IMG/VR virus record: IMGVR_UViG_3300011013_000008
Span: 22,123-86,122 of that record
Source: a virus
DNA length: 64,000 nt
Direction: 5' to 3' (one strand)
Shown in pieces: positions 62,187 through 63,560 of the stretch. Position 1 is the first letter of the stretch, and each line of letters begins with the position of its first letter. The notes under the pieces are model-generated. The model worked only from the letters and a program-made list of their open reading frames with translations. It made no database searches and was not told the origin of the DNA. Made by a program: the position numbers and the translations under genes.

Positions 62187-62348
62187 ATTATACCGTGCCT
62201 CCGGCATCATGTCAATACCTATTTAGAGATATATGTCAGACTGGCGAAAAATGTTATACTGGCTTCAAAAAGTCAAAAAACCTTACAACATTAAAAATCG
62301 CCCCCACCCCTCCCTTGGTATTATACACCAATTCCGATCACCTGTCAA
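62187..62348 (-). promoter_or_regulatory. two antisense sigma70 promoters
   Basis: TTGACA-17-TATAAT at 62215-62187 and 62348-62320. Confidence 0.75.
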
Positions 62349-62391
62349 GCTTTTTTATTACTTATATACATTTTCTTATTTTTTCTTTTTT

Positions 62392-62580
62392 AGCTTGCGC
62401 CTAGTACTGATCTTTCAACTGAAATGGTTTTAGCCTACCCGCACCAATATTCGCCTCCGGCGACAATTTGTGAAGTCTATATAAAAACTCAAGCTTGCGC
62501 CTAGTACTGATCTTTCAACTGAAATGGTTTTAGCTTGTCCAGACCAATGCCCGCCGGAGGCGGCAACTTGTCAAGTCTAT
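62392..62580. repeat. 100-bp-period direct repeat, two copies
   Basis: AGCTTGCGCCTAGTACTGATCTTTCAACTGAAATGGTTTTAGC at 62392 and 62492; both copies end in AAGTCTAT. Confidence 0.9.
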
Positions 62581-63272
62581 CTCTATTCACCTACCATAGT
62601 ACCAGTCTTTTCATATAATCAATTTTATGCTCGTTGCGCCCATTATACTCCAACAGCCTAGAAACTTGTCAAGTGAGATTACTTTTGCTTTTTCATAATT
62701 TAAAACAATAGTCTATATTTACCAATTCCGCACCTATCGGGCCACTTGCTGCGAAGCAGACATTGGCCAAACTATTAATCCTCACAACAATCATTCCAAT
62801 AGTACCCAAATTCCCACCAAATTGGAAAAACTGAATATAATTATATAAATCTACACTATCCGGGCCAATATACGCTTTTCAGCGTCAATATGCCCAACCT
62901 TAAGAAAAATATTCATTCACAAGATAAAATTTTACACCCATAATCATAGCAATCAAATTTTATTTTTCAAATAGAGATTTTTTCAAGCGTCTGGAACACT
63001 GTGAACCAATCTAGAGAGAAATGTGGCTAGCTAGAGTACATTTGGGCACTTTCAGGGAAATTATAAAACAATTTTTGAACATTTTGTAAAATTTGGAGAC
63101 AATTAAGGAAAACTAGGAAGAATTGGGCAACTTTAGAGAAATTTGGAGCACTAGTCTACTTTTTTATGCCTATTTTAGAGTGGTTTTAAAGCGGCGCGAA
63201 GTGCCGCATGATTAGAGCGAATTAGAATAAGTTGGAAAAAATTGGAGGAGGGAGGGGGTGGAAAAATCTCAC

Positions 63273-63478
63273 TTGACTACGAGCTGGTGAGCATGTTATA
63301 GTTATACTAAGGATTTTATTATTTTAAAACTCCAAAGTGTAATAAAGGCAATTTAACTAGTTAAACTCTGCACCTCAGCGATTTTAACCAGAATTTTTTA
63401 ACAAATGAGCTCGTAATTTTTAGCCATTCGGAACATAGAAAATTACAGTTGAAATTCTGTTTGTAAAAACTGTATAAT
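63273..63478 (+). promoter_or_regulatory. early sigma70 promoters
   Basis: TTGACT-18-TATAGT (63273) and TTGAAA-18-TATAAT (63449). Confidence 0.6.
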
Positions 63479-63560
63479 AACTATATTGAAATGAGAAAAG
63501 AAATGAAAAATAAAATTTCAACGCTATCCGGCCTAATACTGGCTTCGCCACCAATCGGGC

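Follow-up and report, generated by a model that had tools for sequence, protein, structure and literature searches.

How bacteriophage T5 halts DNA transfer after 8% of its genome has been injected has been an open question since the 1960s-80s. The T5 injection-stop signal (iss) is located in Repeat Region 3 (RR3) of the left terminal repeat, at positions 9194-10409 of AY587007 (Davison 2020, bioRxiv 10.1101/866236), and the mechanism of this region is still described as unexplained in the accessible text of that preprint and of a 2026 preprint. A second set of known systems relies on very small DNA hairpins with a GNA triloop closed by a C-G pair. As DNA, the heptamer GCGAAGC melts at 76.5 °C, and mini-hairpins of this kind serve at G4-type origins, at ssiA of RSF1010 and at N4 promoters (PMC13037366, accessible part). 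The N4 promoter hairpins extrude at a superhelical density of -0.035 and need the C-G closing pair together with a 5' G and a 3' A in the loop; when the N4 P1 hairpin was placed between the -35 and -10 elements of rrnB, promoter activity was abolished in vivo and could be restored by novobiocin, i.e., by gyrase inhibition (PMC4496689, accessible part). Here, an array of C-GNA-G hairpins is described in a 1.56-kb stretch without credible open reading frame (ORF), positions 62121-63682 of a 64,000-nt window, which constitutes the final 64 kb of the 86,122-nt IMG/VR virus record IMGVR_UViG_3300011013_000008 from a T5-like phage. All coordinates refer to this window unless given as genome positions. 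A first-pass annotation, made from the sequence alone, had drawn attention to the hairpins, and its background statement that C-GNA-G loops are exceptionally stable in DNA and used at N4 promoters agrees with what is stated in the accessible parts of both papers (PMC4496689, PMC13037366). A literature search returned no paper on GNA-loop hairpin arrays in injection-stop regions of T5-like phages, and the words hairpin, cruciform and stem-loop have 0 mentions in the accessible text of Davison (2020), on which the supplement of that preprint, said to list more repeats, may bear.

Enumeration located all six annotated hairpins (6/6) at their claimed coordinates and strands. These are TGCC-GGA-GGCA on the minus strand at 62196-62206 (plus strand TGCC-TCC-GGCA); TCGCC-GGA-GGCGA on the minus strand at 62451-62463 (plus strand TCGCC-TCC-GGCGA) and CCGCC-GGA-GGCGG on the plus strand at 62551-62563, belonging to copies 1 and 2, respectively, of a 100-bp tandem repeat; CTGC-GAA-GCAG on the plus strand at 62749-62759, which forms the inner hairpin of the two-tier element GGCCA-CTTG-[CTGC-GAA-GCAG]-ACAT-TGGCC (62740-62768, +); GCGGCGC-GAA-GTGCCGC on the plus strand at 63191-63207, with one G.T pair beside the closing C-G pair, deviating flanks and AATTTGGAG-type purine-rich repeats around it; and TGGC-GAA-GCCA on the minus strand at 63540-63550 (plus strand TGGC-TTC-GCCA), immediately before a set of iterons. 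The original list was nevertheless incomplete, as it overlooked a seventh family member on the minus strand (62862-62895), whose inner hairpin at 62872-62885 reads ACGCT-TTTC-AGCGT on the plus strand, presents a GAAA tetraloop on the minus strand and is embedded in the shared flanks. Chance is ruled out as the origin of this cluster by shuffling. The 1562-nt ORF-free stretch holds 5 C-GNA-G/C-TNC-G triloop hairpins with perfect stems of at least 4 bp, whereas 2000 dinucleotide-preserving shuffles average 0.086 (maximum 2; 0/2000 reach 5). In the complete 86-kb record, 21 such hairpins are found versus 4.1 ± 2.0 expected (maximum 10 in 100 shuffles), and DNA of other T5-like phages (582,570 nt) has a background density of 0.137 per kb. 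Likewise, the heptamer GCGAAGC occurs 11 times instead of the expected 2.6 ± 1.7 times, and 7 of these 11 occurrences fall within one arc. The genome-wide count against shuffled controls, which had been proposed as a check, hence gives a clear excess over background. Since the hairpins are copies of a repeat family, however, they do not represent six independent events.

The repeated element is an oriented, two-tier palindrome of about 30 bp. Its outer arm (GGCCA/TGGCC or a variant, with a small internal loop) leads into roughly four unpaired bases that have TTG at their end; an inner stem 4-6 bp long, the GNA loop, the second stem half, ATATTGG and the returning outer arm follow. At the apex, either the classical mini-hairpin heptamer GCGAAGC (6 copies of the family) or GCC-GGA-GGC is found. 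Alignment of 10 copies yields the conserved flanks ..GGCCAtTTG-stem-GAA-stem-ATATTGGCC.., and a profile search built on them regained 7/10 copies at E<0.1 without an additional copy. In total, the family comprises 11 copies, seven of them in the stretch and four among the first early genes (genome 423, 474, 1883 and 4599), the latter all extragenic and the first two arranged in tandem between convergent genes (genome 416-493). All 11 are grouped around the boundary within a single arc of 6.3 kb (genome 84318 to 4609 on the circle). Whereas the apex does not vary, the stems do: among 10 copies, 9 different stems occur, all of them paired, and inner positions pair with their own partner in 40/40 cases versus 216/360 with the partners of other copies, a result equalled by 0/20000 shuffles. 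DNA folding predicts the two-tier hairpin for 9/11 copies with free energies of -6.9 to -13 kcal/mol.

Two copies belong to the 100-bp tandem repeat (62392-62580, +; 1.9 copies, 84% identical), in which the first 43 nt are identical and the hairpin half has diverged. The loop flip noticed in the first pass is indeed present: the loop is TCC in the first repeat copy and GGA in the second, where it is inverted relative to its flanks; alongside, the outermost stem pair has changed from T-A to C-G in a compensatory manner. Loop orientation relative to the asymmetric flanks is uniform in all other copies, and the flip is therefore regarded as a single event. According to the accessible part of PMC8794818, template switching yields loop flips together with compensatory changes, and the flip thus shows folding of the palindrome during replication without demonstrating a function. 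The same observations can be accommodated by the main rival explanation, in which neutral or selfish palindromes, resembling repetitive extragenic palindromes (REP) or miniature inverted-repeat transposable elements (MITE), multiply by local duplication, keep their pairing through template switching and accumulate harmlessly in the longest stretch free of genes. The family is restricted to this phage and present in both orientations, two of its copies reside in a tandem duplication, and a loop inversion with compensatory stem change is a template-switch signature (PMC8794818, accessible part). Neutral accumulation does not, however, readily explain why all copies are confined to the 6.3-kb arc with none in the further large stretches without genes (56100-56480 and 57330-58620), why the apex is invariant and the stems variable, or why in 14/14 other loci (see below) the corresponding position downstream of dmp is taken by independent arrays whose stems differ; moreover, no Y1 transposase of the REP-associated tyrosine transposase (RAYT) type is present. 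This account is hence considered unlikely, and if it were correct, the elements would merit a modest note on phage repeat families.

The stretch is bordered by the last small plus-strand gene of pre-early type (61914-62120) and by the first early gene (63683-63982), and it is preceded by a block of small plus-strand genes, every one of which has a TTGACA-N17/18-TATTAT promoter of its own. The pre-early T5 gene dmp, coding for 5'-deoxyribonucleotidase, has a homologue in this block (60432-60959, +; E 4.3e-11 to T5 dmp), which ends 1.2 kb ahead of the first hairpin. This arrangement recurs in uncultured phages. When IMG/VR was searched with one hairpin 15-mer, 100 loci were obtained, of which 32/100 contain at least 4 and 50/100 at least 3 C-GNA-G hairpins per 1.5 kb; among control loci centred on the large terminase (TerL; n=101), 0 contain at least 4 and only 1 contains three. 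A dmp homologue is encoded in 16/100 seeded loci, 14/16 of these also hold an array, and in 14/14 cases the array is situated 1.2-4.4 kb downstream of dmp in the direction of dmp, as it is here at 1.2 kb. On the dmp-sense strand, loops read TNC in 54 and GNA in 29 cases. Some of the array-bearing seeded loci come from other large viruses; hence, the motif is not confined to T5-like phages. Very dense arrays of up to 16 hairpins per 1.5 kb were noticed in large viral contigs that are not evidently T5-like (L304, L332, L359, L339, L302/L309 and L303/L344), with L304, L332 and L359 belonging to one metagenome-assembled genome record of a giant virus. No cluster was found within 10 kb upstream of TerL in 26 metagenomic loci (0/26), which is uninformative because the array of locus L328 lies ~11 kb from TerL.

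The reading favoured here, to which a probability of roughly 40% is assigned and which thus remains tentative, is that the hairpins provide a DNA-level boundary signal at the junction of pre-early and early genes and that one of them additionally acts as a local topology switch at a single promoter. Two-tier elements specific to this phage populate the untranslated boundary between the pre-early (dmp) module and the early genes, the counterpart of T5 RR3, where first-step DNA transfer stops. They would act as DNA, adopting stable hairpins or mini-cruciforms on negatively supercoiled or transiently single-stranded duplex, and in this form they would mark the boundary for proteins acting on the incoming genome, be it for pausing and/or restarting transfer or for end processing. 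With regard to the first-pass annotation, which had regarded the region as extruded or single-stranded DNA working as injection stop, origin or priming signal, the proposal is supported in part: the hairpins are non-random, their apex chemistry fits a DNA structure and their place fits a signal of the injection-stop type. The N4-promoter and DnaA-origin versions lack defining features. Although the apex shows the N4 features (a 3-nt loop, a C-G closing pair, 5' G and 3' A), N4-type promoters were rejected because no ORF comes near 3,500 aa, as would be required for the giant polymerase, with no profile search aimed at that polymerase run; the largest ORFs encode 1,850 aa (tail fibre) and 1,395 aa (tape measure), and none in the first 22 kb exceeds 480 aa. 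For an origin of the DnaA type, 0 DnaA boxes (TTWTNCACA) are found in the stretch, and the 8 in the window match the 7.8 expected.

The switch part of the favoured reading concerns hairpin 62196-62206, which lies wholly within the 17-bp spacer of a perfect (12/12) sigma-70 consensus promoter, TTGACA-N17-TATAAT, directed leftward from 62215 to 62187 on the minus strand. Its geometry is the natural equivalent of the engineered rrnB/N4 hairpin construct (PMC4496689, accessible part). Extrusion of the hairpin would distort the spacer and thereby silence the promoter, so that transcription would start on DNA still relaxed after its injection and be shut off on supercoiled DNA. An N4-type hairpin in a perfect sigma-70 spacer would constitute a natural topology-sensing promoter; to our knowledge, a topology-sensing hairpin promoter exists only as an engineered construct. 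The transcript of the 62215 promoter is predicted to comprise ~60 nt, ending in a 29-bp palindrome followed by a U-run, and there is no ORF downstream. A second perfect leftward promoter (62320-62348, -) has a spacer without hairpin. A weak promoter-like site, TTCACA-N17-AATATT, has hairpin 62451-62463 in its spacer, and in element 62862-62895 the TTGGCC arm also serves as the -35 box of a promoter-like site scoring 10/12.

A number of observations weigh against a boundary signal with a promoter switch. Regarding the structures themselves, the stems are very short (4-5 bp), folding energies are modest over the 11 copies (-4.1 to -13 kcal/mol; z-scores likewise modest, -0.5 to -5.3), and for 2/11 copies (62196 and 63540), standard DNA parameters predict another minimum-energy fold of the 35-39-nt context; stems may, furthermore, stay paired by template switching without selection (PMC8794818, accessible part). 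Promoter-spacer placement applies to 1/88 hairpins over 15 arrays (sites scoring at least 10/12), and therefore promoter gating cannot be the general role of the arrays and was rejected as such. The 100 seeded loci were picked for already holding one such hairpin; this ascertainment biases the sample but does not force co-occurrence with further hairpins and dmp. An nhmmer profile of the 10 copies gave no match at E<1 in T5, KEY, PG07, PR1, IW18 or PM135 (best E 1.2), and hence the claim of flank homology was abandoned; the resemblance GCAATCA/CCAATAT is anecdotal. The outer-arm pattern returned only 24 chance-level singletons and no family relatives in IMG/VR, so that being the same element as in T5 would be a matter of apex and position only. 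In 185,579 species genomes, the pattern gave at least 120 singletons, mostly GC-rich and at chance level, which is uninformative on the host. In T5 (3 hairpins), Vibrio phage PG07 (4) and the phage described here (5), the RR3-type region is where the densest 1.5-kb hairpin cluster is found, yet in the same seven-genome panel this is not so for PR1, IW18, PM135 and KEY, and PM135 has no cluster at all. Erwinia phage KEY retains a single one, the T5 hairpin located just outside the repeat end, while PR1 and IW18, whose terminal repeats of 10,461 and 7,737 nt were confirmed, have 0 such hairpins in or near them. Lastly, the phage possesses neither a detectable T5 A1 homologue, as the search for A1 found no match, nor DnaA boxes in the stretch.

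A further rival is purely mechanical action, the central idea of the first pass, in which hairpins, either extruded or already formed, would obstruct or retard the passing DNA and thereby confine entry to the pre-early module. In its favour, the array is placed where the dmp module ends, and the same is true of T5. On the other hand, there is no evidence of cruciforms in packaged DNA, PR1 and IW18 have long terminal repeats and no hairpins, and five family copies extend up to 4.6 kb past the boundary, among the early genes, which together render a mechanical stop quite improbable. Also improbable is a stronger form of the favoured reading, in which C-GNA-G arrays would be the physical core of a T5-like injection-stop/restart signal read by pre-early DNA-binding proteins, with one copy as supercoil-gated promoter switch. 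If this were true, the array would be a conserved DNA-shape signal ending the first-entering module, and the 62215 transcript would be tied to relaxed, just-injected DNA. The recurrence of extrudable mini-hairpin arrays in one genomic position offers a concrete, mutable candidate for the T5 stop, and the three hairpins of T5 itself are open to testing.

Whether the elements act as DNA or RNA can be addressed by their orientation. The GNA strand equals the inferred RNA sense in only ~6/11 copies, and this mixed loop orientation with respect to inferred transcription favours, without proving, a DNA-level role. An RNA-level function would consist in stem-loops at transcript ends, serving as terminators, in 3'-end protection or in processing for ORF-less leftward transcripts and early operons. 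Such a function would suit the copies between convergent genes at genome 416-493, the several leftward promoters that fire into the left half of the stretch and the change of sign of the GC skew at ~62950, which fits divergent transcription. Yet no hairpin is followed by a T-run, and the terminator-like list within the window includes none of the six hairpins nor the 62872 member; hairpin 62196 lies upstream of the start of its own promoter's transcript; an Rfam E-value scan of 60800-64000 detected nothing within 62121-63682, with sub-threshold matches at 60926-61059 only; and the special stability of C-GNA-G is described for DNA (PMC13037366, accessible part). An RNA-level role is accordingly judged doubtful. 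A separate hairpin on the minus strand at genome 2612 is terminator-like. With respect to base composition, a C-rich run CGCCCCCACCCCTCCC (62299-62314) and a G-rich run GGAGGAGGGAGGGGGTGG (63244-63261) form an inverted pair ~950 bp apart that brackets most of the hairpins, and the point at which the skew changes sign lies between them.

Alternatively, the hairpins could mark the boundary of a long terminal repeat, as a cut mark for terminase or nickase, or could serve as primase start sites on displaced strands. The left terminal repeat of T5 has the hairpin GGCC-TTC-GGCC 20 nt beyond its right end, and KEY retains this hairpin; hairpin 63540-63550 resembles the T5/KEY hairpin in flank and place. 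Moreover, the 10-mer TGCCTCCGGC of hairpin 62196 (62196-62205) is identical to positions 8-17 of AY587007, at the physical left end of T5, and GCCTCCGGC, of which the 111.6 kb of T5 contain a single copy, is found three times here, always within the stretch. The use of mini-hairpins by primases at G4-type origins and RSF1010 ssiA (PMC13037366, accessible part) would agree with the priming variant. These points are opposed by the termini of PR1 and IW18, which have no such hairpin, by the absence of GCCTCCGGC from KEY, PG07, PR1, IW18 and PM135, by the missing DnaA boxes and by the GNA strands, which are mixed and not mirror-symmetric about the AT-rich centre. A boundary or priming signal of this kind is therefore deemed very unlikely. 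At 63455-63472, TTCTGT..TAAAAACT follows a TTGAMA box and resembles T5 positions 10128-10148 across the right end of the left repeat (..ttctgtggatc|taaaaactc..), which is a weak lead for a possible repeat boundary near 63464. As PR1, IW18 and KEY have neither this likeness nor the T5-terminus match, both are kept as leads only. CGAAC-NNN-GTTCG hairpins are found in 0 of 101 TerL loci and, among the 7 panel genomes, in T5 alone. In terms of assembly, the record is circular since 123 nt are identical at both ends (an exact overlap, leaving an assembled circle of 85,999 nt), and a circular assembly would collapse any long terminal repeat. Contigs of one run break at repeats (59602-59628, 60450-60476, 61405-61418, 61904-61917, 62421-62505 and 63591-63603), and these breaks coincide with repeated promoters and tandem repeats; read depths of 11-23 are too noisy for reading a terminal repeat. 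The run carries the label subsurface metagenome and may represent the source sample.

The phage itself is a distant, uncultured relative of T5. Its DNA has a G+C content of 33% and shows T5-like gene content and order, including tRNAs, plus-strand replication genes (DnaB-type helicase, family A polymerase, SbcC-like protein, ribonucleotide reductase) and minus-strand late genes (tail fibre, tape measure, major tail protein, protease-capsid fusion, terminase). The large terminase shares at best 51.6% identity with Vibrio Demerecviridae and 56-60% with uncultured relatives from IMG/VR and from metagenomes. By blastn, the ORF-free stretch has no match in 50,697 phage records, and no relatives of the dmp ORF and of a 99-aa ORF were found in IMG/VR. 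For T5 A2, a genome search remained without match, and a weak pairwise match of ORF 58628-59083 (E 5e-4) derives from a single comparison. A short motif ..KEI..G....IR..L....Y is common to ORF 58628-59083, with which the pre-early block begins, to ORF 63683-63982, which comes directly after the hairpin stretch, and to T5 A2, again as a weak likeness (E 5e-4, 0.61), and the two ORFs may encode paired A2-like DNA-binding proteins flanking the boundary.

The stretch opens with a palindrome. Next come a motif of the TGCGC type and AATTTGG repeats, which are purine-rich and surround a hairpin, and then a promoter reading rightward, another hairpin and the iterons. The perfect 29-bp palindrome (62126-62154) has the core AATGAGAATCATTCTCATT and continues into a T-run on the minus strand, rendering it terminator-like. 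Rightward promoter-like sites are located at 63273-63302 (TTGACT-N18-TATAGT, +) and at 63449-63478, and the short iterons (63559-63660, +) comprise a 20-bp unit repeated 3.5 times and then a 13-bp unit repeated 2.8 times. TTGCGCC occurs 9 times on the plus strand (58023, 58117, 58204, 62153, 62395, 62495 and 62634, and also 41198 and 50259) and once on the minus strand of the genome, with 7/9 plus-strand sites in two gene-free stretches. Its core resembles annotated T5 nick sites (CCCTGCGC / CCCGCGC), making these sites candidates for strand-specific nicks or for part of leftward transcription units. In addition, seven near-identical plus-strand promoters (TTGACA-N17/18-TATTAT or TATACT) are present at 58328, 58531, 59584, 60432, 61398, 61639 and 61897. 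Five of the seven carry a spacer inverted repeat (T)AGCA..N..TGCTA, an operator-like design for pre-early shut-off, and run contigs break at the four promoter repeats 59584, 60432, 61398 and 61897. By eye, three tandem units of ~62 bp were noticed at 56150-56420, just past the small terminase gene, and ~25-bp repeats at 57917-58000, ahead of the pre-early promoters; both are possible end or packaging signals.

In comparison with known systems, the family shares with REP and bacterial interspersed mosaic elements (BIME) the format of imperfect extragenic palindromes of ~30-35 bp in both orientations, sometimes in tandem (as at genome 416-493), with covarying stems. In contrast to these, only 11 copies exist, restricted to a 6.3-kb arc instead of being spread genome-wide, and the RAYT (Y1) domain PF01797 is absent, with the control positive in 10/14 genomes; in both respects the family departs from REP/BIME. 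Integron attC sites are not matched either, as the flanks ..GGCCAtTTG and ATATTGGCC.. do not correspond to RYYYAAC ... GTTRRRY boxes. The complementary-strand origins of G4, St-1 and alpha3 and RSF1010 ssiA offer the same GCGAAGC apex on a short stable hairpin within a longer stem-loop, but they operate on single-stranded genomes or displaced strands at a defined origin, whereas a double-stranded genome with hairpins on mixed strands is concerned here (PMC13037366, accessible part). The early promoters of the N4 virion RNA polymerase are matched in their short hairpin, 3-nt loop, C-G closing pair, 5' G and 3' A, and they differ from the present elements, whose stems are mostly 4-5 bp long and which lie on both strands.

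The closest counterpart remains T5 RR3. Differences are evident: blastn of the stretch against T5 gives no alignment, the paired DnaA boxes of RR3 (Davison 2020, accessible text) and an A1 homologue have no equivalent, dmp points towards the stretch here and away from it in T5, and seven hairpins of one private family with four more among early genes are opposed to the three hairpins of T5 at 9819, 10001 and 10159. Without alignable sequence and DnaA boxes, the stretch is therefore a counterpart by position and motifs, and as such the correspondence to the T5 injection-stop region is supported by several features. Both regions extend over more than 1 kb of untranslated DNA between pre-early and early genes, next to a module containing dmp, both are rich in palindromes, direct repeats and short iterons, both hold C-GNA-G hairpins, and in both, AATGAGAATCATT palindromes are followed by a TGCGC-type motif. 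The 13-mer AATGAGAATCATT, searched with at most one mismatch (reversed-pattern control 0-1), counts 4 in T5 RR3 (AY587007 9508-9630), 5 in KEY (102508-102676) and 8 in PG07, 7/8 of them in the corresponding region (109668-110122); it is absent from PM135, and PR1 has one copy elsewhere. In the window, it forms two perfect palindromes (61024-61048 and 62126-62154), both of them preceded by a perfect promoter that reads leftward (61114 and 62215). The 13-mer resembles a Fur box. AATGAGAATCATT thus marks regions of the injection-stop type in T5-like phages that infect E. coli, Erwinia and Vibrio as well as in the phage described here.

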